Source: Bdellovibrionales bacterium (GTDB lineage: Bacteria; Bdellovibrionota; Bdellovibrionia; Bdellovibrionales; UBA1609). From it: a stretch of 64,000 bases of DNA. The notes beneath the pieces are model-generated. The model searched no databases. It was given only the letters and a program-made list of their open reading frames with translations, and was not told where the DNA came from. The position numbers were made by a program, and so were the translations under genes. Below, piece by piece: positions 3 through 37,517 of the stretch (within the stretch, counting starts at the first letter, position 1; every line of letters starts with the position of its first letter). Location: positions 704,122 through 768,121 of the forward strand of contig OZ242172.1 in assembly GCA_965205645.1 (NCBI GenBank), given 5' to 3'.

Positions 3-1469
3 ATTCGTTTAGCTGAGCGGGGTTTTATTATTTCTGGGGATCATTATGATCGAACAAATAGTAGTAAGAACAAATTTAATAAAGCGGGTCGGAATGTTTT
101 TTTTCATAAGGGGAAATCTTATTTACCGGGTGAACGTTTAAGACAGCCTGGTTTAGCATTAGCATTAAGGCTTTTGAAAAAAGGGAAATCGGTATTTTAT
201 CGGGGTTTGATTGGAAGAGATATTGTTCGGGTTGTGCAAAAACATGGCGGGGTCATGCGCATGGAAGATTTGCACAAGTATCGGGTGCGTTGGCTTGATC
301 CGATCCGGTGGGATTTTGGTGGATATCAGTTTTACAGTATGCCTCTTCCGAGTTCTGGAGGAATTATTTTATTTAGGGCTACTCGTTTAATGGAACAGGT
401 GTTGGCACTTGGTAAACATAATTTGCAAAGTCGTGACATGGGAGCAGCGGAATCGCGGCGCCGCCGAGTCGGCGGGGACACTTTTGGTAAACATAATTTG
501 CAAAGTCGTGACATGCGTGCAAGGAATCGCGGCGCTGTAACCCCCCTTGGGGGGGTGGATGAGTGGCATTTATTAGCGGAGGTATTATCTGCTGCATTTC
601 GTCCGAGAGATCAGATGGGGGATTTGCCGGACGCAACTAAGTTATTAGAGCGTTGGTTATCGGTGAAGGATTTAGATCGTTTAGCTCGGAAAATTTCTTT
701 TCGGCGAATATTAAAATTACCTGCTTTGATCAGTAAACTTGATTTGCACAGTCGTGACATAGATGTACGGAATCGCGGCGCTGTAACCCTCCTTGGGGGG
801 GAGACGACACATTTTTCTATGATGGATGATAAGGGTCAGGTGGTATCTATGACGTTATCTTTGAACAGCAGTTATGGTTCTTATGTTGTGACGAATCGGT
901 ATGGCATTGTTTTGAACAATCAGATGGACGATTTTAATACGCATCCTGGTCGACCGAATCAATTTGGTTTGATTCAGGGTAAGAACAATTTAGTGCGTGC
1001 GCATCGTCGGCCTTTAAGTTCTATGAGTCCTACGATTGTGGAGAAGGATGGACGTGTGGTATTAGCGCTTGGTGCAGCAGGTGGTCCGATGATTATCAGT
1101 GCTGTATTTCAGGTATGTTATCGGTATTTGATTCAGGGTTTAGGTTTAGATCAGGCGGTACAGTTTCCTCGTGTACATCATCAATTTTTACCTCGTGTAT
1201 TGTATGTAGATAAGGATCGTTTTGCACCATTGGTATTAAAGCATTTAAAGAGGCGTGGGCACATTTTAGAGCAGAGGGATTTTATAGGGAGGGTGATGGC
1301 GGTTGGACGGCGGCGCCCTCCAAAAGGGAGTGATGGTGCCGCGATTGCGTCATCCTATGTTACTGTTTTGCAAGATAGTGACAATCGTGCAAGGAATCGC
1401 GTCGAAGTCACCCCCCTCTTGGAGGGGGCTTTTGATGCGCGTGGTGAAGGCGCAGTTGGTGGTTTCTGA
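3..1469 (+). CDS. ggt: gamma-glutamyltransferase, 5' end off-window, carrying three in-frame repeat insertion sites
   Basis: Frame 3 is open from base 3 (IRLAERGFIISGDHYD...) into the listed ORF 174..1469. GGT hallmarks are present: GGETTHFSMMD (nucleophile Thr), NNQMDDF, PLSSMSPT, GAAGGP. Confidence 0.9.
   Translation: MRLAERGFIISGDHYDRTNSSKNKFNKAGRNVFFHKGKSYLPGERLRQPGLALALRLLKKGKSVFYRGLIGRDIVRVVQKHGGVMRMEDLHKYRVRWLDPIRWDFGGYQFYSMPLPSSGGIILFRATRLMEQVLALGKHNLQSRDMGAAESRRRRVGGDTFGKHNLQSRDMRARNRGAVTPLGGVDEWHLLAEVLSAAFRPRDQMGDLPDATKLLERWLSVKDLDRLARKISFRRILKLPALISKLDLHSRDIDVRNRGAVTLLGGETTHFSMMDDKGQVVSMTLSLNSSYGSYVVTNRYGIVLNNQMDDFNTHPGRPNQFGLIQGKNNLVRAHRRPLSSMSPTIVEKDGRVVLALGAAGGPMIISAVFQVCYRYLIQGLGLDQAVQFPRVHHQFLPRVLYVDKDRFAPLVLKHLKRRGHILEQRDFIGRVMAVGRRRPPKGSDGAAIASSYVTVLQDSDNRARNRVEVTPLLEGAFDARGEGAVGGF
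411..557 (+). repeat. Two tandem units of the GC-rich modular hairpin repeat (head GGTAAACATAATTTGCAAAGTCGTGACATG at 411 and 486), inside ggt and in-frame
   Basis: The head is duplicated exactly. Unit 1 ends in the CCGCCG-AGT-CGGCGG hairpin and unit 2 in the CCCCCC-TT-GGGGGGG hairpin. Translated as GKHNLQSRDMGAAESRRRRVGGDTFGKHNLQSRDMRARNRGAVTPLGG. Confidence 0.9.
733..801 (+). repeat. Diverged single unit of the same repeat, in-frame in ggt, ending just before the catalytic Thr codons
   Basis: GTAAACTTGATTTGCACAGTCGTGACAT...GGAATCGCGGCGCTGTAACCCTCCTTGGGGGGG, translated as KLDLHSRDIDVRNRGAVTLLGG and followed by ETTH. Confidence 0.85.
1305..1428 (+). repeat. Composite repeat insertion near the ggt 3' end: an inverted partial unit plus a forward unit
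   Basis: Contains ...GCAAGATAGTGACAATCGTGCAAGGAATCGCGTCGAAGTCACCCCCCTCTTGGAGGGGG. It is preceded by a GC-rich segment with CCCTCCAAAAGGGAG. The insertion is absent from the ggt remnant at 6606..6713. Confidence 0.8.
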
Positions 1470-1471
1470 TT
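1428..1471 (+). repeat. Direct repeat A (att-like): the last 14 codons plus stop of ggt
   Basis: GCTTTTGATGCGCGTGGTGAAGGCGCAGTTGGTGGTTTCTGATT recurs at 5152..5195 and 6672..6715. Confidence 0.85.
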
Positions 1472-1648
1472 TTTTAATATTCTTTCAAAGAATCAGGTTA
1501 TTAATATTTCAGCGGATAAAATTTATTTTTCTTTATAAGTTTAGGTTCATGACACTTTAACAGGGTTGTTTTTAACTATTTTTGACAATAATCTATATAA
1601 GTCATCTTTTCTGTAATTGAACCTAAATTTAATAATATAACATCATAG

Positions 1649-2299
1649 TTAATCAGATAGTTCAAATAAAATAGCATTGAATGTTTGTGTAGTATTATTA
1701 TGCACAGGAATTGTTTTTACTTCTTCTAAGGAGATTATTTTATTTTCAATAGCTATTTTTAATTTTTGTTTTATCCATTCAGGAGGATAAGCACCACTTG
1801 AAATTAAGTTCTGAAAAGTTTTTCTAATATTAGTTATATATAATCCATTTTTCTCTAGTTTTTCTGAAGTATGTAAATTTTCGTAATGCAAAATTAATTG
1901 ATCGTTATTAGCAGTACGCCGGAAATTATCCGGAACAGTAATATGAAGTTTTACTGGACAATCCATTTTAAAATTCATCAAATAAAGTGCAGTTTCATAG
2001 GAAAACGTTCCTACTTGTTCACCGTTACGATTTCTAGCCCAAAGTTGAAAGAGAAAAAAATCTTTTTTTGAATCTGTTTGAATAAAATTAAGTTGATATA
2101 TTCCTCTTTTTACTCGTGACCAGTTTTCTCTTTTTAAATGATAAGAATGATTTCTAGAATCGATACCTGATTCTATTGCCTGTTGGCTAGTGAATAGACC
2201 TGATTGATTCTGAGCAATTTTTAATAAAGGATGATTAACTCTCAAAAATAGTTCCTTATTTGATATAATTATGTATTTTATGTTATATACTATCAACAA
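1649..2299 (-). CDS. AbiEi-like (type IV TA antitoxin-type) DNA-binding domain protein, no AbiEii partner nearby
   Basis: The N-terminal pattern GLFTSQQAIESGIDSRNHSYHLKRENWSRVKRGIYQL resembles the AbiEi_4-type wHTH. Judged by eye only. Confidence 0.45.
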   Translation of the reverse strand: MLIVYNIKYIIISNKELFLRVNHPLLKIAQNQSGLFTSQQAIESGIDSRNHSYHLKRENWSRVKRGIYQLNFIQTDSKKDFFLFQLWARNRNGEQVGTFSYETALYLMNFKMDCPVKLHITVPDNFRRTANNDQLILHYENLHTSEKLEKNGLYITNIRKTFQNLISSGAYPPEWIKQKLKIAIENKIISLEEVKTIPVHNNTTQTFNAILFELSD

Positions 2300-2399
2300 T
2301 AATTATAAAATAACATAATTTTTATGTATTTTATATATTTTTTTCTTGTTTTTTGCAATATATACTGGTAATTTCTATCGAAAAAGAGGGATGTCTATA

Positions 2400-3464
2400 A
2401 TGATAAAAAGCATAAAAATTCAAAATTATAAGCTTTTTAAGTCCTTTGACCTTCAGAATATTCCTCAAATTCTGTTAGTTGGTGGAAAAAATAATAGTGG
2501 AAAAACTAGCATTTTAGAAGCTGCATTTATGTCTTTGGATTGTGTGAATCCCAATATGTTTATCAGGCATCTTGGATGGAGAGGCTTGAATACTATTTCT
2601 AATGATGTAGAATCTTTATTTGGCCCTGTATATCATAATTTTGATTTAAACCAGCCTATAATTATTCAATATACTCTTAATTCAGCACAAAAAAAATTAA
2701 TATACAAGTTTCTGCCATTTGTTACACAACCTATTATCACTCGTAACGGAAGCAGTATTGAAATTAACGAGAAAGTTAGCAGATTTGGGGGGATAGAAAT
2801 TTCTTATTGGCTAGGAAGAGAACAATATCATAAGGCTTTGTTAAAACATGAAATAAAGGGACTTAATTTATCATCTGTGAATCAAGTGCTGAAATACAAT
2901 GAAGGTGTAAAAGCTGTGTTTCTTGCTTCAACTTTTTCAGATCATCAATCGGAAAATGCTCGTAGATATGGCGAGTTGGATAGAATAAATAATACAGCTA
3001 ATATTTTAACTGCATTAAAAATTTTAGAATCCAAACTTAATTCTTTGAGTGTGATACCAATGGGCAATAGATCAATGATATACGGAGATACGGGTCTCGG
3101 AAAAAAAATTCCCTTGGCACTGATGGGTCAAGGGATTAACAAACTTGTATCTATTCTTTTAGCAATTTCCAATGCTAATAATGGAGTTGTTTTTATAGAT
3201 GAGCTTGAAAATGGATTCCATCATTCTGTTCTATCCGATATATGGAAAGTTATTTCACACCATGCTATGTTTAATAATACACAAGTGATAGCTACTACAC
3301 ATAGTAGGGAGCTTATTCTAGGAGCAGTAGCAGGTATACCTGATAGGATTAGAGATAAATTTAAATATATGAGGATAGAAAGAAAAGGAAATGCATTTAA
3401 AACAAAACATTATGATTTTAATACTTTGAGTGCAGCTTTAGATTCTGAGTTAGAAATTCGGTAG
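2400..3464 (+). CDS. ABC/SMC-type AAA ATPase (AAA_15/AAA_21-like, OLD/AriA-like ATPase module)
   Basis: Walker A GGKNNSGKTS, signature-like MGQGINKL, Walker B VVFIDELENGFH, H-loop ATTHS. Start chosen at the ATG at 2400, 10 nt after GAGGG. The longest ORF starts at 2346. Confidence 0.75.
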   Translation: MIKSIKIQNYKLFKSFDLQNIPQILLVGGKNNSGKTSILEAAFMSLDCVNPNMFIRHLGWRGLNTISNDVESLFGPVYHNFDLNQPIIIQYTLNSAQKKLIYKFLPFVTQPIITRNGSSIEINEKVSRFGGIEISYWLGREQYHKALLKHEIKGLNLSSVNQVLKYNEGVKAVFLASTFSDHQSENARRYGELDRINNTANILTALKILESKLNSLSVIPMGNRSMIYGDTGLGKKIPLALMGQGINKLVSILLAISNANNGVVFIDELENGFHHSVLSDIWKVISHHAMFNNTQVIATTHSRELILGAVAGIPDRIRDKFKYMRIERKGNAFKTKHYDFNTLSAALDSELEIR

Positions 3465-3469
3465 ATTTA

Positions 3470-4123
3470 GTGAATCAGAAAAACAGATTTAGCATAAAAA
3501 TTACAGAAACAAAACTCCTTCTTGTAGAAGGAAAGGATGAAGAGTTTTTTTTTAAAACTTTCTTAAAAAAGAAAGAGATTTGTAATATTCAAATTATTTC
3601 TAGTGGTGGAAAAGATAAATTTAAGAACAAATTTCCAGCAATTAAAAACACTCCTGGCTTTGATGAAGTAACTTCATTGGCTGTCATCCATGATGCAGAT
3701 ACAAACGCTCAAGGGGCATTTCAAAGTATTTGTTCTGTATTAAAGAACAATAGCGTGGATTATCCTAAACAAATTTCATCATTTACTACTTCAAATTCCC
3801 TTAGAGTTGGGGTTTTTATTATTCCGGATGGAGGAAATCAAGGAAAGTTAGAATCTTTATGCTTATCTACAGTTGAGTCGGACAGTATTATAGAATGTAT
3901 TGATTCTTTTATGAGTTGTATAAAGCAGCAGTCACAGCTTGATATAAATAGATATAAAGAACCAAAAGATATTCATAAAGCTAGATGTAGGGCATTTCTC
4001 TCAGCTATGGAAGAGGATATTCCATCTTTGGGATTAGCTGCTGAAAAGGGTTATTGGAATTTAGATTCAGATAAATTGAATCCTATGTTGAATTTTTTAC
4101 AGGAATTAAATCGCAAAGAGTAA
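3470..4123 (+). CDS. Small Toprim-like partner protein (DUF4435/DUF3226-like)
   Basis: GTG start 6 nt after the ATPase stop. Contains LLLVEGKDEEFF (conserved Glu) and AVIHDADTN (DxD), the two Toprim acidic motifs, plus IIPDGGNQGKLESL. Confidence 0.55.
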   Translation: MNQKNRFSIKITETKLLLVEGKDEEFFFKTFLKKKEICNIQIISSGGKDKFKNKFPAIKNTPGFDEVTSLAVIHDADTNAQGAFQSICSVLKNNSVDYPKQISSFTTSNSLRVGVFIIPDGGNQGKLESLCLSTVESDSIIECIDSFMSCIKQQSQLDINRYKEPKDIHKARCRAFLSAMEEDIPSLGLAAEKGYWNLDSDKLNPMLNFLQELNRKE

Positions 4124-4148
4124 ATAATATATTAAAAAAAGCACTAAT

Positions 4149-5159
4149 ATGGAAATACCAAAGTTTTTATTATATGGTGAGACTGATCCAAAAACTCAAG
4201 AGAGAATACAGAAAACTCTTCCATGGAGAAGTTGGGATCAAGTCAGTGAAAAGGGAAAAGAAATTGCATTTCAGCAATTGATTAATGAAAATGTATTTCT
4301 ATACAAATCAGATCTTGTAGAAAATACGATAAAACGTTTGAATAATAAATTTTTAAGAAAACTATATGGAAAAAATTTACATTATTGTATGTCAGAATAT
4401 CTTGATGATTATCAAACAGCAGCAATGGGTGATTTTCGTGAAATTTTTACAACAGGAAAATCTGATGTGGTTTTTTATATGTTAAGTATATTTGCTGAAG
4501 GATTTATTAATCAGAATTATTTACGTCAAGCAAAAGAATCAAATAATAATGTAGATAGAAAAGAATATATAGAACAAGCTTTTATTCCATTTAATAAATT
4601 ACAGAACTGTTTGAATCATATTTTTGGACAATTTCATGTCAATCAACAGCTTACTTGGAGTGGTTTTATACCTCGTCAAGATGAAAGAATTTTAGATCAA
4701 ATCTATATTCCTACAATTAAATGTCTTTCCGATCCGAAATGGAGTTTAGTAAATAATGATTTAAGTAATATGTTTCAAGACTATAGAAATGGTAACTATC
4801 GGGACACTATTACTAAAGCTCATAATGTTTTACAAAGATTTCTTCAAATTTTTTTAAACAAGAGAAGTAAAAATGCTAAAGGAGAGTTAGGTAAGTTATT
4901 TTCGGAAGCTAAAAATAAAGGTGTTATATCAAATAATATTTTTATCATGAAAATCATTGAAGGTATTCAGAGCTTTGTATCTTCTGAAAGAGCAACTAAA
5001 AGCACAGCCAAACCTGCATTTAAAAATGTTACATCTGCAGATGCTTTGCTAGTAATGAATGCAGTTATGGTTTTTTTACAATACTGTTTAGAAGCAGATG
5101 CAACTGCATTGAAAGTATCTCCTGCGATTCATAAAGAGAGAGAACGGATGGCCTTTTGA
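4149..5159 (+). CDS. Hypothetical protein, third gene of the ATPase/Toprim cassette. Helical C-terminus with weak HEPN/Abi_C-like flavour.
   Basis: 336-aa ORF 25 nt downstream of the Toprim-like gene. YRDTITKAH fits Rx6H only loosely. Its stop codon (5157..5159) lies inside direct repeat B. Confidence 0.4.
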   Translation: MEIPKFLLYGETDPKTQERIQKTLPWRSWDQVSEKGKEIAFQQLINENVFLYKSDLVENTIKRLNNKFLRKLYGKNLHYCMSEYLDDYQTAAMGDFREIFTTGKSDVVFYMLSIFAEGFINQNYLRQAKESNNNVDRKEYIEQAFIPFNKLQNCLNHIFGQFHVNQQLTWSGFIPRQDERILDQIYIPTIKCLSDPKWSLVNNDLSNMFQDYRNGNYRDTITKAHNVLQRFLQIFLNKRSKNAKGELGKLFSEAKNKGVISNNIFIMKIIEGIQSFVSSERATKSTAKPAFKNVTSADALLVMNAVMVFLQYCLEADATALKVSPAIHKERERMAF

Positions 5160-5195
5160 TGCACGTGGTGAAGGCGCCGTTGGTGGTTTCTGATT
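5152..5195 (+). repeat. Direct repeat B (att-like copy of the ggt 3' end)
   Basis: CCTTTTGATGCACGTGGTGAAGGCGCCGTTGGTGGTTTCTGATT has 3 mismatches to copy A by hand alignment. Confidence 0.85.
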
Positions 5196-5264
5196 GTTTA
5201 TAGTTGTCTATTTAGTATTATTAAAAAATAGATTTGCGGTGGATGTATATTGTACAAACAGAAA

Positions 5265-6413
5265 TTACTTGATATTTTTCAGCCAGTCAGCAGCTGGCCA
5301 GATATGACATCCTGAGGTATGTAGCCTTTGTCGGCTACAAGATCTAACTAGCTGTATTTTTTTTACAGGATCAGGTATATCTTTAGTAAATAAATCAAAA
5401 TGAGATGTGAGTTTTTCATCTTTCCATTTAGTCTCTATCATTTGAAATGGCTTATTGTCTTTTGTGATTAAGAAATCTATTTCTTTTTTATCTTTATTTT
5501 TTAAGTAATAAAGTTGTCTTTTTTCTCCATAGCAGTCTTCTTTAAAGTGGTTATTTTTTAGTAAGGCGCAGGCAACAAGGTTTTCGAATCGCGCGCCTTT
5601 ATCTGAAACTTGAGCTATATCGTAAAAATAATACTTAGGCTGTTTGCGGATAGATTTTCTGATGTTTTTATAATAGGGTTGGATTTTAAAAATAAAATAA
5701 AATCCTTCTAATAGGTTCAGCATTTTTTTCACTGTTTTACCATCGCATTGTAGGATTTTTGATAAATTTTCGTATTGAATAGCGCTACCAACGGATGTTT
5801 TTAGTAACTCTAATAAGGTTTCTAATTGAGAAATTCTTTGGTATTTATCTAGCTCCAGCATATCTTCTTTTAGAATGGCTGAAGTGTGCGTGTTTGCCCA
5901 TCTTCTATAAAACTGCTTTGATCCTTTAAGATATGGTTCTGGAAATCCTCCAATTTCTAGCAGTCGGGTGAGTATTTGCTCTGGGTCTGCTTTTTTATGT
6001 ATTTGGCAAATTTCTTTTACGTCTAAAGGATGTAGGCGAAAAGGGAAAAAGCAGCCAGCTAAGGAATCTCCTGTTCTTTTATAGGCTTCAAGTCTGGCGC
6101 TACCTGTTACTATAATACCTTGTTTAAGTTCTGTTTTTTCATATAAAGCTTTTAGCCATTGTTTCCAGTTTTTTTTAATATGTAGTTCATCAAAAACTAG
6201 GTACTTGCAATAAGGATTCCATTCTTGTCGTTCTACCATTAGGCGGTCTTTGGCATCAAAGTAGTTAAAATAATCAAATTTTACTGAGGATGGGTGTAGG
6301 TGTTTTGAAAGCATTGTTTTTCCGGATTGTCGAGGACCGGTTATAATTAAAATCTTTTCTTTTAAATCTTTTTTTAAAAAGGGCTCTAGGTAGCGAGGTT
6401 TGTATTTGTTCAT
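5265..6413 (-). CDS. AAA ATPase of the AAA_14/DUF4143 type
   Basis: Walker A ITGPRQSGKTML and Walker B-like YLVFDELH. A C-terminal EIDFLI...IETKW module is typical of DUF4143 proteins. Paralog at 41867..43030. Confidence 0.75.
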   Translation of the reverse strand: MNKYKPRYLEPFLKKDLKEKILIITGPRQSGKTMLSKHLHPSSVKFDYFNYFDAKDRLMVERQEWNPYCKYLVFDELHIKKNWKQWLKALYEKTELKQGIIVTGSARLEAYKRTGDSLAGCFFPFRLHPLDVKEICQIHKKADPEQILTRLLEIGGFPEPYLKGSKQFYRRWANTHTSAILKEDMLELDKYQRISQLETLLELLKTSVGSAIQYENLSKILQCDGKTVKKMLNLLEGFYFIFKIQPYYKNIRKSIRKQPKYYFYDIAQVSDKGARFENLVACALLKNNHFKEDCYGEKRQLYYLKNKDKKEIDFLITKDNKPFQMIETKWKDEKLTSHFDLFTKDIPDPVKKIQLVRSCSRQRLHTSGCHIWPAADWLKNIK

Positions 6414-6449
6414 AGTATATAAGATATATTATCCGAGGGGGTATGTCTA

Positions 6450-6511
6450 GACTATTTCGGATATAACTACGAAAAAGTACGGACTATTTCGGAGATATCT
6501 CCGAAATAGTC
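6450..6511. promoter_or_regulatory. Putative operator: perfect 30-bp palindrome plus an extra half-site upstream of the DUF4143 ATPase gene
   Basis: GACTATTTCGGAGATATCTCCGAAATAGTC at 6482..6511 is its own reverse complement. A third half-site GACTATTTCGGATAT lies at 6450..6464. The site is 37-98 nt upstream of the ATG at 6413. Confidence 0.5.
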
Positions 6512-6605
6512 TTTCTCATTAGTGGGTATGGAAAGTGGAATATATTTGTTATTTTCATATATTGCTATTTAGATTCATGAGAGCAGGTGTGATGTGGTTA
6601 TATGC

Positions 6606-6713
6606 CAGAGCGGATTAGAGAATACTCTGGGAATAAGGTTTAGTTTGCATGTGGTGGCAATTTTAGAAGGGGCTTTTGATGCGCGTGGTGAGGGTGCAGT
6701 CAGTAGTTTATAA
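6606..6713 (+). pseudogene. ggt: Displaced, diverged 3' remnant of ggt without the repeat
   Basis: Reads ...LHVVAILEGAFDARGEGAVSSL* in frame. The live gene has ...GRVMAV[38-aa repeat insert]LEGAFDARGEGAVGGF*. There is no upstream ORF. Confidence 0.65.
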
Positions 6714-6715
6714 TT
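6672..6715 (+). repeat. Direct repeat C (att-like)
   Basis: The first 20 nt are identical to copy A. There are 7 mismatches in the remaining 24 by hand alignment. Confidence 0.8.
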
Positions 6716-6725
6716 GGATAAAGTG

Positions 6726-8003
6726 TTATCTATATATCACATGAGGATGAGATACTGTGCTAGGTGTACTTTTCTCCCAGTCATCTAAATCTACCGCATC
6801 GTCACATTCATGGAATACAAAAAATTGATCTTTATCAGACAATTCCCCCGTACTAGATATATGATCCGGTAATGAATAATATTCACAGTCAGTGCCTTCT
6901 TCTCCTCCGACATCTGGATCTCCGCGGCTGCCATTGGATTCCACAAATTTATTAAATTCTTCTTCTGTATTCCATTCTCTTACAACTAAATGGATACGAT
7001 GTATCACCTCATGCGCATTATCCAGGCATGACCAGGTAAAATACGGATATCCTTTAAATTGTGTGCCTGGGTGATTTGGCAATGGATCTGTTTCATATAG
7101 TTTAGGTAAGTTATCTAAATTAAAATCTTCTATATCTTCATAGTAATTAGCTACGACAAATGAAGGGCCACTGATTCTTAAACTGCCTCTTGTTGGATCT
7201 CCACCATCGTAAAAGCTTTCAATGCTTGGTATTTCATAAGTTTCAATGTGGCCATCTCTTTCCGTACTAGTGACTAGTGTTAGTGGAATTCCTAAATCAT
7301 TTCTAGCGTTCCAGTTAACGCGGCCTAGGCCTCCGAGGCATTGTTCCAGGCTTTCTCCCCAGGAACCATCTGATTGATCTTCTCCTGAAACTGCGTAATC
7401 ACCAATACAACAATTAGCTAAGTCATCATTTCTATCACTTAGATCGTATCCACATAAATTTTCTATTTCAGCAGAGCATGCTCCTCGTCCTGGTCCATCA
7501 GTGCAATATCTATCTTCTGTTTCTGCATTATCTCCAGTACCTATTGTGCGTTCATCTTTATGAATAATTCTCGGTCCATAACCAGCATTTTGATTAAAGT
7601 GCCAGGGTACTTGAAATCCCAGGTAGTCACACATACCAGGCGGCACATTATATTCAATAGGGGTTGGATGTCCCCATAGATCCCCTTCTATTTTTTCTAG
7701 TTGGCAAAATATATCTTCACTGGATTCTTGATCAATCGGGATTTTACAGTCTGTACCAGGCCCTGCATCTAGCTCATACAGTGCATGTTGTAAAAAGCTA
7801 TGTCCTGCATAGTTGTCTCTGGCTAAGCGAATATAAAAGAATCTATCGTTTGGAATAGATCCTTCATTCTCATCCCATGAAGGTAGTTGAGAAAATGAAG
7901 AGAAGTCACTTGATCCAAAAACATTGAGCTTGCTACAACCCATGAAGAAGGATAAAGCCAAGCCTGTTACGTATAATGAAATCAATAGAACTTTCAGACG
8001 CAT
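6726..8003 (-). CDS. Acidic Cys-rich putative lipoprotein, unknown function
   Basis: Signal peptide with lipobox (LSFFMGC). 425-aa intact ORF rich in D/E/C/G. Confidence 0.6.
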   Translation of the reverse strand: MRLKVLLISLYVTGLALSFFMGCSKLNVFGSSDFSSFSQLPSWDENEGSIPNDRFFYIRLARDNYAGHSFLQHALYELDAGPGTDCKIPIDQESSEDIFCQLEKIEGDLWGHPTPIEYNVPPGMCDYLGFQVPWHFNQNAGYGPRIIHKDERTIGTGDNAETEDRYCTDGPGRGACSAEIENLCGYDLSDRNDDLANCCIGDYAVSGEDQSDGSWGESLEQCLGGLGRVNWNARNDLGIPLTLVTSTERDGHIETYEIPSIESFYDGGDPTRGSLRISGPSFVVANYYEDIEDFNLDNLPKLYETDPLPNHPGTQFKGYPYFTWSCLDNAHEVIHRIHLVVREWNTEEEFNKFVESNGSRGDPDVGGEEGTDCEYYSLPDHISSTGELSDKDQFFVFHECDDAVDLDDWEKSTPSTVSHPHVIYR

Positions 8004-8139
8004 AATAAATATATTATCGGTGGATTAATGCAAAGTGTTTAAGAAAACAAGCTAGACTTTTAGATAGTTTTTAGTTGGATTCAGCGAGCAGATTTTTTTA
8101 ATTGCATTGAAACAAACTACTTTTTTATTCTTAAAGAAA

Positions 8140-8505
8140 TTAATGTTTTGTAGATGTTTTTGTTTCAATTGTTTTAAGGCGAGCGGCTCGTCCTTTTTGT
8201 TTTCTTAAGTAAAAAAGCCGTGCTCTGCGTATTTTTGCTTTAGATACTAGCACGACTTTCTCTAAAGCAGGGCTAGCCAGCGGAAATGTACGTTCCACGC
8301 CTACTCCACCAGATATTTTGCGCACTGTGATGGATCGCGAGGATTTTTTCCCTTGAATTTTTAATACAACACCGCTGAATACTTGCACGCGTTCCTTGCT
8401 GCCTTCCCGAAGACGTATGTGGGCATCCACTGTATCTCCAACTTGTGCTGAGTAATCTTGTTTTTTCTTAGATTGATCCAGCGTGAATTTTTCTACGATA
8501 TCCAT
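8140..8505 (-). CDS. rplS: 50S ribosomal protein L19
   Basis: VGDTVDAHIRLREGSKERVQVFSGVVLKIQGKKSSRSITVRKISGGVGVERTFPLASP is canonical L19. Confidence 0.95.
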   Translation of the reverse strand: MDIVEKFTLDQSKKKQDYSAQVGDTVDAHIRLREGSKERVQVFSGVVLKIQGKKSSRSITVRKISGGVGVERTFPLASPALEKVVLVSKAKIRRARLFYLRKQKGRAARLKTIETKTSTKH

Positions 8506-8550
8506 GGCACTTTCCTTATCTATAACTTGTGTACTTTCGTTTAGGTAATA

Positions 8551-8880
8551 TTATTTTAGATGTTGTTTATTTTTATGTATTTGATCTAAATGACGATCTA
8601 ATTGATTTATTTTGTGAATATTAGCATGGGAGGGGTAGGTATACGTTCTTTCTTGTAGTATCTTGTTTTCTATTGCTTCTTCGGTTGAAAAATTGTTGTT
8701 TAATTCTTTCATCCGCTGCGAGTGAATTGGATAATCGAGTGTGTTTTGTTTGTGTATAGCATTATGAACAGCTATTGGATTCAGGAAGGCCATTGAACAC
8801 TTTATATTTGTCAAAGAATTGCTGTAAGCGTAAGATGAAAATAATAATAATAATATATAAAATATCCAAATTTTTAACAT
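8551..8880 (-). CDS. Small secreted protein, family member 1 of 4 between rplS and trmD
   Basis: Signal peptide MLKIWIFYILLLLFSSYAYS. Shares YTYPSHANIHKINQLDRHLDQI with the other members. Confidence 0.6.
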   Translation of the reverse strand: MLKIWIFYILLLLFSSYAYSNSLTNIKCSMAFLNPIAVHNAIHKQNTLDYPIHSQRMKELNNNFSTEEAIENKILQERTYTYPSHANIHKINQLDRHLDQIHKNKQHLK

Positions 8881-9159
8881 AACAATTCCTTTTACTTCAG
8901 AACATTTTTCTTAATAATATCAGATGTTTAAATCCTTAAACCCAAGTAGGTATTAAGTTAAGTGAGGATATTTATCATACGAGTTGTCTTTATGCAACTT
9001 TAAAAAAGGGGTGGTGTAAATATTTACATTGCCAGTGTAAAAAAACAGCTATTTGCCTGGAAGCTCACGTTACTTAAGTACACATGATTGGCAAAATTAT
9101 GACATGGGAGTAGCAGATTCATAGCGCAGTTATTGATATCGTCTATCATTAGTTGTGTA

Positions 9160-9717
9160 TTATTTCATGTAATATTCTTTATATGAATTCATTTGTTGGT
9201 CTAAATGATCGATTTGTTTTTGCAATTTTTGAGATACAAAGAGTGCATGTTCATAGATTGTCTCTTCTAATTTCATTTTTAATTGTGCAATATGAATCAG
9301 CTGATTCAGCTTTGCATTGTATTTTGTGTGTGCAATAAATATTATCTTCGACGTTTCGTTTAATAGCTTCGGATTTTCTGCATGTTCTGTCACATTCTCT
9401 TCCAGCTGCTGGTCATGTTTCTGTTTATCTAGATAAGGCACAATGAGTTCTGTATGAAGAAGATCATTTACTTGATCTATTACATTGGAATATTGTTGAT
9501 TAGTTTCATCTACTTTTTTTGATAATTGTTTTAAGTCTATACCAGCTTCTTCTAGTGGTGTTCTATCTATGCCTTTAAAAGAAAATCGGCATTTTGTCCA
9601 AGAATTGCTATATGCATTCTGTGAAAGTAACAATGCACAAAATATTCCTATTATAGCTATGCTCAAACTCTCACAGCTATAATAGATAGAATGATAACAG
9701 TTTTTCCTACTCTGCAT
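9160..9717 (-). CDS. Secreted coiled-coil-like protein, family member 2
   Basis: Its N-terminus MQSRKNCYHSIYYS... is identical to the 9874 ORF, followed by a signal peptide. Confidence 0.6.
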   Translation of the reverse strand: MQSRKNCYHSIYYSCESLSIAIIGIFCALLLSQNAYSNSWTKCRFSFKGIDRTPLEEAGIDLKQLSKKVDETNQQYSNVIDQVNDLLHTELIVPYLDKQKHDQQLEENVTEHAENPKLLNETSKIIFIAHTKYNAKLNQLIHIAQLKMKLEETIYEHALFVSQKLQKQIDHLDQQMNSYKEYYMK

Positions 9718-9835
9718 GACATTCTCTTTAACAATTAGAGATTCTTTTCATTCATTCAAGCGATCGTACATCACTGAATGGGTACTCTCTTATCATAAGT
9801 GGCATAGTTGTGCAAATTTAAAGAGAGATTAATGT
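9655..9835 (-). repeat. Conserved leader plus 5' CDS segment of the paralog cassette (copy 1)
   Basis: About 180 bp are nearly identical to 10303..10488. The segment includes TTATCATAAGTGGCATAGTTGTGCAAATTTAAAGAGAGATT. Confidence 0.8.
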
Positions 9836-9873
9836 TTTGACTATAATGTTCTTATATTTTTTTTGAAGTTGTT

Positions 9874-10365
9874 TCATCTGTTAAATAGAATCCATAAGTT
9901 ATTTTGATGGATGTGGTTTAAGGTGTTAATTAGTTGTCTTGTTTGTTCGTTGTCTTTTCGATTTGATCTTTTCAGTTCCTGTAGTATGCTTCTTTTCATA
10001 GTTTCTCCTTCAGCTATTATTTGATCCAGTTTGTGATCCCATGGATTTATTTGTTCAGCGTTACTAGGGTATGTAGATTTTAATTTCTGTAGCAGATATG
10101 TTATTTTGTTTCTAAGGACGATAGATCTATCGTGAATGTGTTCTATATTTATTGGCTTTTGTGGTGTGTGAGATGGTTGGATTGCACTCTCTTTTGTTTC
10201 ATCGGTAGGCGCTGGATTGTCAAATGATTGTTGGCATTTATTTTCAGAAGTACCGTAAGTAGGGTGCGCAAATAACAATGCACAAAATATTCCTATTATA
10301 GTCGTTATGCTGAAAATCCTATAGCTATAATAGATAGAATGATAACAGTTTTTCCTACTCTGCAT
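9874..10365 (-). CDS. Secreted protein, family member 3
   Basis: STYPSNAEQINPWDHKLDQIIAEGETMKRSILQELKR...NNLWILFNR parallels the 10543 ORF. Confidence 0.6.
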   Translation of the reverse strand: MQSRKNCYHSIYYSYRIFSITTIIGIFCALLFAHPTYGTSENKCQQSFDNPAPTDETKESAIQPSHTPQKPINIEHIHDRSIVLRNKITYLLQKLKSTYPSNAEQINPWDHKLDQIIAEGETMKRSILQELKRSNRKDNEQTRQLINTLNHIHQNNLWILFNR

Positions 10366-10488
10366 GATGTTCTCTTTAACAATTAGAGATTCTTTTCACT
10401 CATTCATTCAAGCAATCGTGCATCGCTGAATGGGTACTCTCTTATCATAAGTAGCATAGTTGTGCAAATTTAAAGAGAGATTCATGTT
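10303..10488 (-). repeat. Conserved leader plus 5' CDS segment of the paralog cassette (copy 2)
   Basis: See 9655..9835. Degenerate versions of the TTATCATA..TGCAA core are also upstream of the 8551 and 10543 ORFs. Confidence 0.8.
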
Positions 10489-10542
10489 TTTTCTATGACT
10501 CTGAAGAATAAATCAATCTTCTGTTTTTCTTTTTTTGTATAG

Positions 10543-11055
10543 TTACTCAGATGGATTTTTCTTTGATAAGTTAATTTGTTGATCCTGGTATCCTTCCATG
10601 GATACTTTTAACCTGTTAGATAGAATCCATAAGTTATTTTGGTTGATATAATTAAAAATGTAATTTAATTTTACTGTTTGTTGGTTGTTATTTACATTTA
10701 TTCTTTTCAATTCTTGTATTATTGTGGTCATCTGTGTTTTTCCTTCAGCTATTATCTGATGAAGCTTATGATCTAATTGCTCTATTTTTTTAACGTCATT
10801 AGGATGTGTAGATTGTAATTTTTGTAGCAGATGTTCCGCTTCTTCCTTAAGAGCGGCAGATCGGATACTATATTGTTCTATGTTTATTGGCTGTTGCGCC
10901 GTGTGTTCAGTTTGGGCTGCACCTTTTTTTGTTTCATTACTGATAGGTGCTGAATTATTAAATGGTTGCTTGCATTTGTCTCCGGTAAAACCACCAGAAT
11001 CACCGTAAGCAGGATACGCAAATAGCAATACACAAAATATCCATATTATAGTCAT
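10543..11055 (-). CDS. Secreted protein, family member 4
   Basis: Signal peptide MTIIWIFCVLLFAYPAYG. Contains STHPNDVKKIEQLDHKLHQIIAEGKTQMTTIIQELKR...NNLWILSNR. Confidence 0.6.
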   Translation of the reverse strand: MTIIWIFCVLLFAYPAYGDSGGFTGDKCKQPFNNSAPISNETKKGAAQTEHTAQQPINIEQYSIRSAALKEEAEHLLQKLQSTHPNDVKKIEQLDHKLHQIIAEGKTQMTTIIQELKRINVNNNQQTVKLNYIFNYINQNNLWILSNRLKVSMEGYQDQQINLSKKNPSE

Positions 11056-11352
11056 TAGTATTTCCTTTTAAAGATAGTTTTTCTTCCACCGAGACGGTGG
11101 AGCTAGATTGCCATACGGTACTTATCATAAGCTATATAGCTATGCAACCCTGCAACCCTACAAAATAGTTTTTACATTTTATTTGACTGGCTATAAAGAG
11201 ATTAACATAAAAAGAAAATTTTCCTAATACAATGTTAATTTCATCAGTAAAGGCATTTAAATCATTGGTTTATTTGTGTTTGTTAGATTTAAAAAGATTT
11301 TTTAAATATTTTGTCTGAAATTGAGTCATTATCAAGCTGTTTAGCAACTGTC

Positions 11353-12183
11353 TCAATTCTTGGTTAATTTCTTGCCTTTGTCACTGGAAATCCGTTGCAA
11401 GTCAGCACGGCAAAGGCCACAGGCGATTAACTCTTCATCCAATAGCTTTTGCGCATAACTAAGCGCTGCCGGTACCTCTCGCTTAGCAGGACTAGCTACT
11501 AATAAATCTGGTCTTTTTAGTGCGGTTAATAAGACAGATATAAAGTAATGAAATTCTTTAATGTTTTGATGGTGACCGGAAAATAATATTTTTGGTATAC
11601 AATGTCCCTTAATTTCTCTGGGACGGGTCCACTGAGGACATTCTAATAAGCCATGATCTTCAAAGCTTTCATTAGTAGCGGAATATTCATTTCCTAAAGC
11701 TCCTTTAATGAACCGGCAAAGAGAATCTAATATCAATAAAGCAGCTGGTTCCCCTCCAGTGAGTACATAATCTCCCACAGAAATTTCTTCATCCACGAGT
11801 TCTTCAATCACTCGTTGATCGACTCCACCATAGCGTCCGCAAATGATAATACGTTCTTTTTGTTCCTGCTCCGCCCACTGTCTTGCCATTTCATAATTCC
11901 ATTGCTTCCCTTTTGGACTTAAATAATACACTGTTCTTTTTTTTGGTGCTGATTCAATTGCTTGTTTCAAAGGTTCATACTGAAGTACCATTCCATCTCC
12001 ACCACCAAAGGGACTATCATCCACACTCTGATGAATGTTTGTTGCAAAATTTCTAAGTGGAATTAAATTTACTTTTAATAAATTGCGCTGAATAGATCGG
12101 CCTAATATCCCAACATTCAAAGGAGAGTTAAAAAATTCTGGAAAAAGAGTAACGATATGAAATTTTAACATCACACAAACCAT
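11353..12183 (-). CDS. trmD: tRNA (guanine37-N1)-methyltransferase
   Basis: MLKFHIVTLFPEFF, GGGDGMVL, RYGGVDQRV, VLTGGEPAALLILDS. The true start may be the MLKF Met at 12171. Confidence 0.93.
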   Translation of the reverse strand: MVCVMLKFHIVTLFPEFFNSPLNVGILGRSIQRNLLKVNLIPLRNFATNIHQSVDDSPFGGGDGMVLQYEPLKQAIESAPKKRTVYYLSPKGKQWNYEMARQWAEQEQKERIIICGRYGGVDQRVIEELVDEEISVGDYVLTGGEPAALLILDSLCRFIKGALGNEYSATNESFEDHGLLECPQWTRPREIKGHCIPKILFSGHHQNIKEFHYFISVLLTALKRPDLLVASPAKREVPAALSYAQKLLDEELIACGLCRADLQRISSDKGKKLTKN

Positions 12184-12198
12184 ATTCCGTTAGTTGAT

Positions 12199-13647
12199 TT
12201 ATTTTTGCGGATTGGGTTTTTTTATTATCTGCTGGTATTGTTTCAGTGCTTTTTTTACTTTGCCGCTCAGAAATACTACACCAATTAAATTAGGGAAAGC
12301 CATGCTGAGAATCATTAAGTCACTAAACTCCATTGCATTTAAAGAGGTGGCAATAGATCCCAGAAAAACAACGATTAGTAATAGTATTTTGTAAATAACC
12401 GAGTACTTGTCACCAAAAATGAAAACAAAACATCGTTCTCCATAATAGGACCAGGAAATAATTGTAGAAAAAGCAAATAGGATGACTGCTACGCTTAATA
12501 AGTAGGGAGACCAACTCATTGTTTCCCCCATTGCTTTAAATGTTAGCGCTGCACCTTTTTGATGTTCCACTAAATCCATATAATTCGGGTTTTCATAGGC
12601 CCCTGTGATAACGATCACTAAAGCTGTCATCGTGCAAATACAAACCGTGTCAATAAAAGGTTCCAGTAGAGCGACGATTCCCTCTTCCACTGGATGGTTA
12701 ACTTTCGCTGCTGAGTGGGCAATCGCTGCAGAGCCCAAGCCCGCTTCATTAGAAAAAACCGCTCTTTGTATACCTACTATCATGACTCCCATGATTCCAC
12801 CAAGAGCGCTAGCCGGTTGAAAGGCTCCTTGTATAATGATCCAAAAAGCATGAGGAATATGATTCCAATGAACAACTAAAACAATCATCGCCATAGTGAT
12901 ATATAGAGTGCACATGAGTGGCACAATACGGCTGGCTACAAAAGCTACACTCTTTAAGCCTTTCAGAATAACAATGCCTACTAGTGCCGCCATGATCAAA
13001 CCATAGGCCCAGCCGTATGGGGAAAGCGCCGGCCATGTATCTGTAATAGCATGCATAGATTGATTGATCTGAAAGGCTGTGCCTCCACCAAAAGATCCAC
13101 CGATACATAGAAAGCAAAATATAATAGCAAGTGTTCGACCTAAACGTTGATGACCCATTTCTGCGAAACCCTTTTGTAGGTATTCCATTGGGCCACCCAT
13201 TAGTTGACCGTTAGGTCTTTTTTTACGGTACATCACGCCTAAAGTGCATTCAGTAAATTTAGTGCTCATTCCCAGTAGTCCCACGACGATCATCCAAAAA
13301 GTTGCCCCTGGGCCACCAACAGAAATTGCAATCGCTACACCTGCAATATTACCTAACCCTACTGTCGCAGATAGTGCTGTGGTTAGGGCTTTAAAATGAC
13401 TAATTTCTCCTGATTTTTTGTCTGCCTCGCCTGGCTTCATTGCTTGTACCACTAGACGAATAGCTTCTTTAAACATTCGCAAGTTTACAAAGCGCATTTT
13501 TAAAGTAAAAAATATGCCTGCACTGAATAAGATAAATATCACTAAAGGGAACTTAACTCCGTCTACAAAAAACAATAAATCCATGAAAAACAATTGGCTG
13601 ATCCAAGAATTGACTATCTTGAAAATAGAATTTATGAAATCAATCAT
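12199..13647 (-). CDS. Alanine/glycine:cation symporter (AGCS family)
   Basis: About 11 TM segments, GGPGATFWM and FSNEAGLGSA motifs. Confidence 0.88.
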   Translation of the reverse strand: MIDFINSIFKIVNSWISQLFFMDLLFFVDGVKFPLVIFILFSAGIFFTLKMRFVNLRMFKEAIRLVVQAMKPGEADKKSGEISHFKALTTALSATVGLGNIAGVAIAISVGGPGATFWMIVVGLLGMSTKFTECTLGVMYRKKRPNGQLMGGPMEYLQKGFAEMGHQRLGRTLAIIFCFLCIGGSFGGGTAFQINQSMHAITDTWPALSPYGWAYGLIMAALVGIVILKGLKSVAFVASRIVPLMCTLYITMAMIVLVVHWNHIPHAFWIIIQGAFQPASALGGIMGVMIVGIQRAVFSNEAGLGSAAIAHSAAKVNHPVEEGIVALLEPFIDTVCICTMTALVIVITGAYENPNYMDLVEHQKGAALTFKAMGETMSWSPYLLSVAVILFAFSTIISWSYYGERCFVFIFGDKYSVIYKILLLIVVFLGSIATSLNAMEFSDLMILSMAFPNLIGVVFLSGKVKKALKQYQQIIKKPNPQK

Positions 13648-13871
13648 TTAAAGATCACTCTTTCATTAAAATTGCTTTTATTATTACTTTATTTTGTAAT
13701 TTTGACTAGTCACCATTGTATTTTAATAAGACACATAGCATAAAGGTAATTCTCAACATATTGATTTTTTTAATAAAAAATTTCAGAACGATGTTAATAG
13801 GATTGGAGTCGTTCAATTATTTTTGGTTATTCTTCGTTCACTTGAGTTAGTCGTAATTGTTTCGATAAGAT

Positions 13872-14543
13872 TTAAGGGCAGGTTACTTGGTTTTGTTGAA
13901 GTAATTGATCCATTTTATTTTCTGCAGCATTGCGGGATTCCATAAAAGCTTTTAACAAGCCATGGGTTTCATTTGATTGTTTTTTTAAAGTCAAGGTGGG
14001 TCCCATCAAAAAATAATTCCAAAGTTTTTTAATATATCCAGTCTCCAGAAATTTGATTTGCAAAGGTGAGTTCGGGTAAAATTTTGCAAACGCATGCTCA
14101 TCATTCGGAGCTAAATTAATGTAAAACTCATTATGCATGTCAATAGTGCTAGATGGCGTTGTTTTTGATATAGAAACAGATCCTATTCCACCGATACCGG
14201 TCCAGATAGTATAGATTCCCACCGGACGCTGAGATGCAGGTAGTTTAGAAGCAGCGTTGGAATCACAAATAGCCTGGTAATAAGCATCTACATCTTTATA
14301 TTTGTTTAAAATATTTTCCGCTTCTGTTCGTTTGTTTCTGTTAAAAAATAATATGACAAATATTTGTTCCTGATTAGATTCATGCATTTTTTCTATCCAT
14401 ACAACAAAAGATGTATCATTATAAGACGTTGTATACTCTCCTTCTAATTGGGCAGCATCTGTTCCACCATTGAGCGCACTGTTTTCATTACAGGCAAGTA
14501 ATAAAAAAGTTGATAAAAATATAGTTTTCATTATTTGAGTCAT
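13872..14543 (-). CDS. Putative lipoprotein, unknown function
   Basis: Signal peptide with lipobox FLLLAC. Confidence 0.5.
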   Translation of the reverse strand: MTQIMKTIFLSTFLLLACNENSALNGGTDAAQLEGEYTTSYNDTSFVVWIEKMHESNQEQIFVILFFNRNKRTEAENILNKYKDVDAYYQAICDSNAASKLPASQRPVGIYTIWTGIGGIGSVSISKTTPSSTIDMHNEFYINLAPNDEHAFAKFYPNSPLQIKFLETGYIKKLWNYFLMGPTLTLKKQSNETHGLLKAFMESRNAAENKMDQLLQQNQVTCP

Positions 14544-14654
14544 CTTTACTTTATATTATTTATTGTTTATATTAATTAAGCAACACTATTTAAATAGTGT
14601 GTATATTTTTTGATAAAATTTCATTTTGCTGGTGTGTTTATTTAGGGTGTTAAA

Positions 14655-15593
14655 ATGAAGATAATATTAGCGGGTGGCACTGGTTATTTAGGTCGTATGT
14701 TACACCACTTTTTTTTGTCCCAAGGGCATGAAGTGTTGGTACTAAGCCGGCGACCAAGGGCTTGTTTAAAAAAAGGTTTTGTTAAATGGGACGCTCGTTC
14801 AATGGGGGAGTGGACAAAAGTATTAAATGGGTCTGATGCAATCATTAACTTAGCTGGTCAAAGTATTAAATGCCTTTTTACGAAAAAGAATATAGAAGTT
14901 CTGAAAAGCTCTCGTGTGGATGCTACTCGTGTCATTGGGCAAGCGATTCATCAGGCACATCATCCTCCAAAAGTGTGGATTCAAATGAGTTCTGTAACGA
15001 TTTATTCGCATCGTGTGGATGCTCCTAATGATGAATTAACTGGACGTATTGGTGAGCCAATAAATATACCTCTTGTGTGGCAAAAAATGGCAAGCTTAGT
15101 GCAAGAGTGGGAGCAGGCAATGTACGCCTTTCCAACAGAGAACACCCGAAAAACAATCGCTCGTATTTCTGTTGTAATGAGTCCAGGAGCTTATACAGCA
15201 TTTGATATATTTTTTAAACTTGCACGTTGGGGTTTAGGAGGAACAGTTGCAGGTGGCAAGGCTTATATTTCATGGATTCATGAGCAGGATTTTGTACAGG
15301 TAATTAATTTTTTATTGAAAAATGAAATAAAAGGACCTGTCAATGTCACAGCTCCATGTTCTTTGCCACAAAAAGAATTTATGGCTGTATTACGTAAAGT
15401 ACTTGGAGTGACAATAGGTCTCCCCGCAGCCAGGTGGATGATGTATCCTTTGTCCTGGCTCACAAGAGTAGATCCGGAATTGGTTTTAAAAAGTCGCTAT
15501 GTTCAGCCAAAAATTTTATTAGATCATAATTTTAAATTTCAATTTCCTGACTGGAAAACAGCAGCTAGAGAATTGATTCAGAGAAAAATGTGA
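14655..15593 (+). CDS. TIGR01777/YfcH-type epimerase family protein (SDR fold plus DUF1731)
   Basis: MKIILAGGTGYLG Rossmann motif. The C-terminal LKSRYVQPKILLDHNFKFQFPDW is typical of DUF1731. Confidence 0.8.
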   Translation: MKIILAGGTGYLGRMLHHFFLSQGHEVLVLSRRPRACLKKGFVKWDARSMGEWTKVLNGSDAIINLAGQSIKCLFTKKNIEVLKSSRVDATRVIGQAIHQAHHPPKVWIQMSSVTIYSHRVDAPNDELTGRIGEPINIPLVWQKMASLVQEWEQAMYAFPTENTRKTIARISVVMSPGAYTAFDIFFKLARWGLGGTVAGGKAYISWIHEQDFVQVINFLLKNEIKGPVNVTAPCSLPQKEFMAVLRKVLGVTIGLPAARWMMYPLSWLTRVDPELVLKSRYVQPKILLDHNFKFQFPDWKTAARELIQRKM

Positions 15594-15601
15594 GGCTTTC
15601 A

Positions 15602-16449: not shown

Positions 16450-16483
16450 TATCCTTAGTTAAAGAAACTTTTACCCCAAAAGT

Positions 16484-16990: not shown

Positions 16991-17151
16991 TTGTCTGCGG
17001 CGACCTCGCCATGCTCTGCGGCAAAATGCATATCTGAGCTTTTGAGTGAATTTTTTAAATGGGAAAACAAATATTTACACTGTTGCAAATTATGCTTGTA
17101 AATATCCGATTGTATGTTGAGTTTTGGAATAGCTTATTATTAAATAAGGCA

Positions 17152-18150: not shown

Positions 18151-18297
18151 TCCATCTACATAAATAATAAAAAATAATGGAATAGTGACAATGATAAATA
18201 AACTAGTCATACTGAAAGCTATAGTCATAAAAGTAATTTTATAATAATTTTTCAAAGACTGTGTTCAAGGAAAGCTGCGAACTAGGGTGTATAGTGT

Positions 18298-37470: not shown

Positions 37471-37517
37471 TTGATAGAAATTGTTATTTACAGTAACTTA
37501 AACAAAAGGGAAAAATT

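Follow-up and report, generated by a model that had tools for sequence, protein, structure and literature searches.

Mobile elements that insert by site-specific recombination are known to integrate in an attachment (att) site that holds the end of a gene. The att repeats range from 8 to 60 bp, and such elements may lose their integration genes and yet keep both the left and the right site, attL and attR (PMC5704250). Newer elements displace older ones from the target, leaving partial target copies behind (bioRxiv 10.1101/2020.12.28.424599). Here, a locus comparable to these systems is described at the 3′ end of ggt, the gamma-glutamyltransferase gene of a Bdellovibrionales bacterium (assembly GCA_965205645.1), where three direct copies of the gene end bound two small islets of defence-type genes. 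The arrangement is repeat A, islet 1 (3.7 kb), repeat B, islet 2 (1.5 kb) and repeat C; unless another locus is named, coordinates are those of the 64,000-nt stretch of contig OZ242172.1 that was analysed, hereafter the window. With modest confidence, we favour a history in which site-specific recombination brought two elements, one after the other, into the end of ggt, which would have left integrase-less islets resembling cis-mobilizable elements (CIMEs).

The window begins within ggt, whose 3′ part occupies positions 1–1469 of the forward strand (Pfam G_glu_transpept, E=2.9e-79; full protein P0001, 723 aa). The terminal 44 nt of the gene (1428–1471) reappear at 5152–5195 with 3 mismatches (1428, 1439 and 1454), and again at 6672–6715, there without a mismatch in the first 20 nt and with 7 in the last 24 nt. 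These recurrences, including a stop codon proper to the third copy, had been reported in a sequence-only reading of this DNA and proved correct to the base. Repeat finding returned one family of three direct copies of 51 nt, at 1426–1476 (A), 5150–5200 (B) and 6670–6720 (C), bearing out the alternation of repeats and cargo proposed in that reading; compared with copy A, copy B is 92% and copy C 80% identical. The likeness between A and C reaches further left, to position 1419 (TTG GAG GGG in A, TTA GAA GGG in C, both changes synonymous), and as annotated features, all on the forward strand, A and C span 1417–1476 and 6661–6720. Moreover, the similarity among the three copies extends about 7–10 nt past the stop codon (TGATTnTTTA), indicating homology at the DNA level, more than protein constraint alone would produce. 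The only symmetry within the repeat is TGCGC N9 GCGCA.

The repeat is confined to this locus within the window. A 20-mer taken from it, searched with up to 3 mismatches, occurred at exactly three sites in the 64 kb and at none in 100 shuffles, which disposes of the dispersed repeat that the sequence-only reading had named as an alternative, and no fourth copy was found in 6725–20000. A ggt profile hidden Markov model run against the six-frame translation of 1470–6725 matched only the short ends AILEGAFDARGEGAVS in C and FDARGEGAVGGF in B, so this interval holds no longer ggt pseudogene remnant; likewise, the ggt similarity of the DNA upstream of B and of C was not above that of shuffled controls. 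The repeats are sharply bounded, and the stretches adjoining them are mutually dissimilar.

None of the copies has lost the ggt frame or a stop codon; they end in ...LEGAFDARGEGAVGGF (A), ...FDARGEGAVGGF (B) and ...LEGAFDARGEGAVSSL (C), each followed by the stop, placed at 1467–1469 in A and present as an own TAA at 6711–6713 in C. Inside the frame, A and B show two differences, both at synonymous third positions, and A and C show nine, comprising five synonymous changes, one change of TGA to TAA and three changes in the last three codons (GGT GGT TTC in A, AGT AGT TTA in C), which turn GGF into SSL. Third codon positions hold 8 of the 11 differences (binomial P ~0.009 against an expectation of 1/3), and seven of those eight are amino-acid-neutral. 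This third-position bias, the unchanged residues and the kept stops indicate that the copies diverged while serving as gene ends, and they look like alternative functional ends instead of duplicates decaying in place, in agreement with the earlier proposal that an element supplies a replacement gene end. Since the ggt proteins of relatives end in GG(L/F/H), the SSL end of copy C looks like a former ..GGL end that would have received two G-to-A hits after its displacement.

The copies also form a mosaic, as had been proposed before: A is identical to C over 1425–1447 (0 mismatches) and then differs at 7 of the next 24 nt, and on the right side it is near-identical to B over 1440–1476. This pattern is the one predicted for attL/attR hybrids. 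In the proposed history, a look-alike site (attP) on a circular element would recombine with the last ~50 bases of ggt (attB), and every insertion would give ggt a functional end supplied by the element while the previous end is displaced outwards. Copy A, the working end of the gene and the proposed attL-type hybrid, would thus be composed of a resident left part and an element-derived right part. Copy B, the displaced end lying between the islets, would be the junction between the two elements, joining the left part of element 1 to the earlier right part, and copy C, the outermost displaced end and proposed original gene end (attR-type), would combine the left part of element 2 with a right part that is the original ggt end. 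Copy A is closer to B than to C, so islet 2 is most likely the older of the two, and islet 1 would have entered later, pushing it outwards. The recombination genes would have been deleted, or the islets would depend on an integrase encoded elsewhere, the att sites being kept. The site-specific nature of the recombination, the order of the events and any present-day mobility are inferred.

The islets are poorer in guanine plus cytosine (GC) than their surroundings, with 25–35% against ~40–50% in the flanks. Islet 1 (1477–5149; GC 25–34%) contains a conserved four-gene module (1636–5095), preceded by 159 nt and followed by 54 nt of unrelated DNA. The first gene (1649–2299, reverse strand) encodes an AbiEi-like transcriptional regulator (Pfam AbiEi_4, E=1.7e-7; PADLOC AbiEi, E=1.3e-37) and diverges from an ATPase operon. 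This begins with an AAA_15/AAA_21 ATPase of the AbiLi/PDC-M38A type (2346–3464, forward strand; Pfam AAA_15, E=1.6e-21, and AAA_21, E=3.7e-19; PADLOC AbiLi, E=1.5e-53, and PDC-M38A, E=1.7e-39), whose true start is probably the ATG at 2391. It is followed by a DUF3226 protein with an OLD-like TOPRIM domain, of the PDC-M38B type (3470–4123, forward strand; Pfam DUF3226, E=1.8e-35, and OLD-like_TOPRIM, E=2.6e-5; PADLOC PDC-M38B, E=1.1e-13). The last gene (4149–5159, forward strand) encodes an Abi_C-like protein of 336 aa, possibly HEPN-like, whose homologues are 64–68% identical, measure 316–319 aa and in several cases have Pfam Abi_C on record. By their profile matches, the ATPase and its TOPRIM partner are an AbiL/PARIS-like, OLD-like pair; the two genes are adjacent and match the profiles by which AbiL/PDC-M38 is recognized, and a defence role is predicted for them. 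The AbiE toxin-antitoxin system was rejected as an identity for this cargo, since the AbiEi-like gene has no nucleotidyltransferase toxin of the AbiEii type as partner; its neighbour is the AAA_15/21 ATPase, in the same order as in two related loci described below. The native stop of the Abi_C-like gene is gone, and a tail of 19 codons runs to a TGA inside copy B, in place of the ...QYCLKAN end of the homologues. The stop is lost exactly where the homology to other genomes runs out, at a distance of 54 nt from copy B, a coincidence pointing to a deletion that shortened islet 1 at its right end.

Islet 2 (5201–6660) carries a single gene (5265–6413, reverse strand) for an ATPase with AAA_14 and DUF4143 domains (Pfam DUF4143, E=1.9e-27; AAA_14, E=2e-20) that was assigned by PADLOC to the candidate single-gene system PDC-S01 (E=6e-54). 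The profile match covers residues 7–348, PDC-S01 itself being a candidate defence family only. The unit conserved in other genomes (5343–6516) comprises the gene and ~100–110 nt upstream. A 30-nt inverted repeat upstream of the gene (6449–6512; arms 87% complementary and 4 nt apart) falls within this unit, where the homology to the related locus L105 reaches 6516, and is probably the PDC-S01 operator. The cargo of both islets, with its AbiEi, AbiLi/PDC-M38 and PDC-S01 matches, is therefore defence-like, as the sequence-only reading had it. Its observation that the islets lack a recombinase was equally well founded: Pfam and PADLOC revealed no integrase, recombinase or transposase among their five open reading frames (ORFs), and the non-coding gaps of 179, 46, 105 and 312 nt leave no space for a recombinase gene.

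The same cargo was found in related genomes; the related loci named here are L002 (CBDBBW010000007.1), L004, L021, L022, L103, L105 and L106. Overall, related Bdellovibrionales have the two modules at 66–77% protein identity, in some cases inside islands with an integrase. Two other Bdellovibrionales assemblies (L021 and L022) have the four genes of the islet 1 module in unchanged order, and blastn aligned window positions 1636–5095 at 74.5% identity to L021 7440–10944 and L022 7445–10944. Between these two loci the module is 87% identical over 3.67 kb, and the flanks are unrelated. In L021, the region of the module also holds a tyrosine integrase, an HTH_17 gene and an IS3-type transposase. 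In L022, the module lies within a 10.3-kb stretch that is lacking in the related L004 and that starts 2 kb downstream of that genome's ggt, with an integrase and a coupling-protein gene nearby. PDC-S01 homologues 66–77% identical to the islet 2 protein are present in many genomes of the clade; blastn of islet 2 against L105 and L106 gave 73–76% identity limited to the gene and its upstream stretch, and L105 and L106 likewise match each other only over the PDC-S01 gene and ~110 nt upstream. The neighbours of this unit differ in L105 and L106, consisting of insertion sequence (IS) fragments, Rpn-type genes and other DUF4143 genes. The discreteness of the modules and their unrelated contexts in relatives identify them as mobile cargo, and both islets carry horizontally shuffled defence units.

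Two further features of these relatives were observed. A repeat of ~150 nt lies directly to the right of the islet 1 module in L021 (10991–11141 and 14171–14303) and L022 (10991–11123, 11714–11861 and 13064–13215), recurring every 0.7–3 kb between small ORFs in a cassette-like manner, and its sequence is unrelated to the repeats of the window. Rpn/Transposase_31-type nuclease genes and lone HTH_Rpn_C fragments recur in the relatives' variable regions, often adjoining PDC-S01-type genes (L105 4286–5596; L106 7570–7869 and 19794–19973; L103 19015–19512; L002 1277–2536), and one case in L002 belongs to a 2.1-kb segmental tandem duplication.

A second gene end with the same footprint was revealed by a scan in which the last 75 nt and the 12 nt downstream of 68 ORFs were aligned against the next 12 kb. 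Two genes stood out clearly, ggt with a score of 41 and a GHMP-kinase gene (44762–45865, reverse strand) with one of 39, against a median of 11.5; the third-highest score (27.5) corresponded to a whole-gene paralogue duplication. A 54-nt repeat covering codons –20 to –4 of the GHMP-kinase gene (44775–44828, reverse strand) has a copy 1.66 kb downstream (43116–43169) at 89% identity, which includes an unbroken run of 23 matching nt, TTATGTTTGAAACACAAAATACC. The islet of 1.6 kb thus enclosed (43170–44774) contains two ORFs without assigned function (43259–43666, reverse strand; 44113–44736, forward strand), neither of them a recombinase. The working end of the kinase reads ..KHKIPIIMS and the displaced copy ..KHKIPILWRGF, each followed by a stop, and the C-termini of the relatives' GHMP kinases are too variable to tell which end is ancestral. 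The presence of the same footprint at this gene end means that the process recurs in this genome and is not peculiar to ggt, which is no special target. A limited literature search returned no report of ggt as an attachment site; the remark in the sequence-only reading that ggt is not a classic integration target calls for a shift of emphasis, given the similar end of the GHMP-kinase gene. An apparent third case, the L002 gene at 2667–3812, was dropped, as it is part of a 2.1-kb segmental tandem duplication. Beyond the displaced GHMP copy lie a PDC-S01-like gene and a 5S rRNA gene; this AAA_14/DUF4143 paralogue (41867–43030) has no flanking repeats of its own.

Several results weigh against the favoured reading. 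No integrase was detected by Pfam in 33 ORFs of the window, seven of them in the ggt region. The L022 integrase, used as query with phmmer against all 88 open frames of the window and with jackhmmer after the related loci were added, found none in the window either. Among 16 loci of the ggt clade there was no integrase-bearing element at the ggt end, and the exact ggt-end pattern had no match among IMG/VR viral contigs; a degenerate pattern gave six matches there, all unlinked to any ggt end, four of them from one protein family merely containing FDARGEG. In L021 and L022 the four-gene module has no flanking direct repeats, and the ggt and GHMP-kinase junctions have no common motif and share no 10-mer. 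Moreover, the islets are very compact, consisting of a module and 54–159 nt per side, so that the independent loss of all mobility genes from both would not be the most economical course of events. Cassettes that hold only cargo and are mobilised in trans would account for this compactness no less well than two separate decays. When 1400–6750 was compared as DNA with PLSDB plasmids and GenBank phages, no match was found.

A family of such cargo-only cassettes in this genome, inserting specifically at the 3′ ends of protein genes (ggt and the GHMP kinase within one 64-kb window), each with a ~50-nt replacement end, and relying for movement on host recombination or on a recombinase from another part of the genome, is an improbable extension of this picture in our judgement. 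If true, it would amount to a gene-end-targeting, integron-like gathering of defence genes in Bdellovibrionota, and not to two decayed conventional islands.

The repeats and their mosaic would also be produced without any integrase if a circular DNA carrying ~50 nt of a ggt end entered by a single RecA-type crossover, the circle having possibly been looped out of another genome through its own flanking repeats. The failure of the window searches to show an integrase favours such an origin, as do the longest perfect runs, which measure 23–24 nt at both loci (A/C 1425–1447 and the GHMP run given above). In E. coli, RecA-dependent exchange becomes efficient from about this length. Two targets without a shared junction motif are also easier to accommodate without a sequence-specific enzyme. 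However, recombination on ~50 nt at 80–92% identity would be very inefficient, the circle must have captured a gene end beforehand, which merely pushes back the origin of the repeats, and the sequence fits site-specific recombination just as well; we consider this origin unlikely. The order of events might instead be reversed, the ggt end having first been made tandem by slippage or unequal crossing-over and the modules having landed later in the spacers. A possible precedent exists in the ggt clade, where 13 loci have a single ggt end and one metagenome-assembled genome (MAG), L002, has four tandem copies (10967–11523; period 155–164 nt), built of alternating segments of 85 nt, from the gene end, and of 70 nt, the latter resembling the former only over its first 22 and last 13 nt; many tandem duplications are present both in the L002 genome and in the window. 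Under such a course, however, the remnants to the right of A, B and C and to the left of B and C should be alike, and their similarity is not above that of shuffled controls; this lack of homology between spacer remnants led us to reject a tandem array that insertions had split afterwards. The extra ends of L002 keep the stop but have decayed through non-synonymous substitutions (D to N, G to E, A to T), whereas the window copies differ mainly at synonymous sites, and simple decay would not be expected to give A a left part equal to that of C and a right part equal to that of B. Duplication before insertion thus appears quite unlikely.

The locus was also considered as a possible artefact, in which strain variants with different islets would have been joined through the shared gene end, since the source is a metagenome assembly of an uncultured organism. 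The exact shared runs do not exceed 24 nt and the copies differ, making them poor bridges for an assembler; ggt sits on a contig of 1.56 Mb, and a second, unrelated locus displays the same architecture, so that an assembly error is highly improbable. Site-specific insertion remains the explanation we prefer.

The wider comparison of ggt offered only distant counterparts, which assign the window to an uncultured lineage of Bdellovibrionales. Besides the source protein, the closest ggt in 5.8 billion proteins was 52% identical by BLASTP (51–60% in alignment). In 14 genome loci with ggt, the best ggt match was ~50% identical and no gene downstream of ggt was common with the window; at this distance synteny is lost, and no empty, singly or doubly occupied version of the site was found. 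A metagenome scan with the ggt alignment, used as a control, retrieved only distant ggt (28–36% identity), with a duplicate, a weak one, in 1 of 79 loci.

The ggt gene is also invaded by a different repeat, a GC-rich unit of ~75–93 nt with a C5-7/G5-7 hairpin at its end (for example, GTGACATGCGTGCAAGGAATCGCGGCG..ACCCCCCTTGGGGGGG), of which there are ~20 copies in the window. Inside ggt it occurs at 409–483, 484–557, 733–805 and 1315–1429, making at least four in-frame insertions, with more in the N-terminal part, and these explain why the protein has 723 aa against ~550 in relatives. The left edge of repeat A is exactly where one copy of this unit ends. Elsewhere it is found at 16487–16987 (a tandem array of 5.5 copies, period 86), 19288–19343, 21145–21314, 55291–55620 and 57231–57803. 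It recalls the Rickettsia palindromic elements found inside genes; no Rfam match was obtained for it, and consistent folding was limited to the terminal hairpin.

To the right of copy C, the flank begins with the gene of a 425-aa putative lipoprotein (6726–8003, reverse strand), taken from the ORF list, convergent with ggt and without a Pfam match, where the GC content is back to ~40%; rplS (8140–8505) lies beyond it. The genes rplS and trmD are normally adjacent in one operon. Here, rplS and trmD (11353–12183) are separated by ~2.8 kb containing four small ORFs without significant Pfam match (8551–11055), three of which are tandem paralogues, with repeats of ~650 nt at 9577–10832. Further along, small secreted-protein genes are segmentally duplicated at 33972–37000 in a unit of ~1.5 kb, within which 34039–34338 is 99% identical to 35577–35876 and the rest 72–87%, and a 374-nt unit is repeated at 37142 and 37516 (37142–37573), just upstream of the 23S rRNA gene.

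Among described kinds of genetic unit, several were tried for the ggt locus and set aside. A transposon with target-site duplication does not fit, such duplications being short (2–15 bp) and the repeats here being 51 nt long, 80–92% identical and divergent in the manner of coding sequence; moreover, there are neither a transposase nor terminal inverted repeats. A structured RNA or tRNA-like target was likewise discarded, Rfam (at gathering and E-value thresholds) and ARAGORN having revealed nothing relevant. Integrative mobile elements exploiting Xer (IMEX) and dif/pdif modules are integrase-less, use the host XerC/XerD recombinases and can stack in tandem. The islets resemble them as integrase-less modules bounded by recombination sites, but what recurs here in direct orientation is the end of a coding gene in place of 28-bp dif-like sites, and no dif of the E. 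coli type (a consensus that may not be the lineage's own) was found anywhere in the window at up to 3 mismatches. Defence islands also gather at integrase-free hotspots between core genes, usually without clear flanking copies of a gene end. Small variable defence loci without mobility genes of their own, whose modules occur elsewhere in relatives, are common to both situations, but here three ordered copies of the ggt end would record the insertion history.

In the case of integrons, the likeness lies in compact, cargo-only units placed in series, in a recurring recombination site and in an enzyme encoded outside the cassette. Unlike attC hairpins, however, the ggt repeat is a copy of the end of the neighbouring gene, and the islet cargo has its own promoters, lies in both orientations and includes one four-gene unit. 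An integron array was consequently rejected, since the repeats as single-stranded DNA form only a 5-bp stem (–3.8 to –6.1 kcal/mol) and adopt no attC fold; the locus also lacks IntI among the window ORFs tested, and attI, the region upstream of ggt lying outside the window.

If site-specific insertion is the right reading, the locus would be an ordered record of defence modules gained singly, at a gene end and without damage to the gene, in a small genome of predatory type. The ggt and GHMP-kinase genes would join the list of protein-gene targets, and the second locus hints that insertion at gene ends may be a regular route in this genome. The islets also provide two compact candidate defence units, namely the four-gene AbiEi-ATPase-TOPRIM-Abi_C module and PDC-S01 with its probable operator.

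The tycheposon islands of Prochlorococcus (bioRxiv 10.1101/2020.12.28.424599) are similar in the repeated integration at one site, with newer elements pushing older ones outwards, in the partial target copies, in the degenerate elements without integrase, in the adaptive or defence cargo and in the small genome of the host. Tycheposons differ in that they target tRNA genes and, when intact, carry tyrosine recombinases, whereas here the ends of protein genes are occupied and no recombinase was seen. Also similar in layout are the CIMEs and the tandem accretion of the ICESt1/ICESt3-related islands of Streptococcus thermophilus (PMC5704250), in which elements lie in tandem at one site and the element restores the gene end. 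The 51-nt ggt repeats flanking the islets fall within the 8–60 bp range of att sites (PMC5704250), and, as in CIMEs, integration and transfer genes are lacking in both islets. Differences are found in the related integrase-bearing element, which was not encountered at the ggt end in the 16 clade loci or in IMG/VR, the four-gene module accompanying an integrase at another site in L021, and in the size of the ggt islets, which are far smaller (1.5 and 3.7 kb) and contain a defence module only. The host, a Bdellovibrionales MAG, and the target, ggt, differ as well. The type of event is one already known, occurring in a little-studied lineage and in islets that hold no insertion enzyme of their own; if our reading is right, it would extend the picture of accretion and CIMEs from Firmicutes and cyanobacteria to uncultured Bdellovibrionales.

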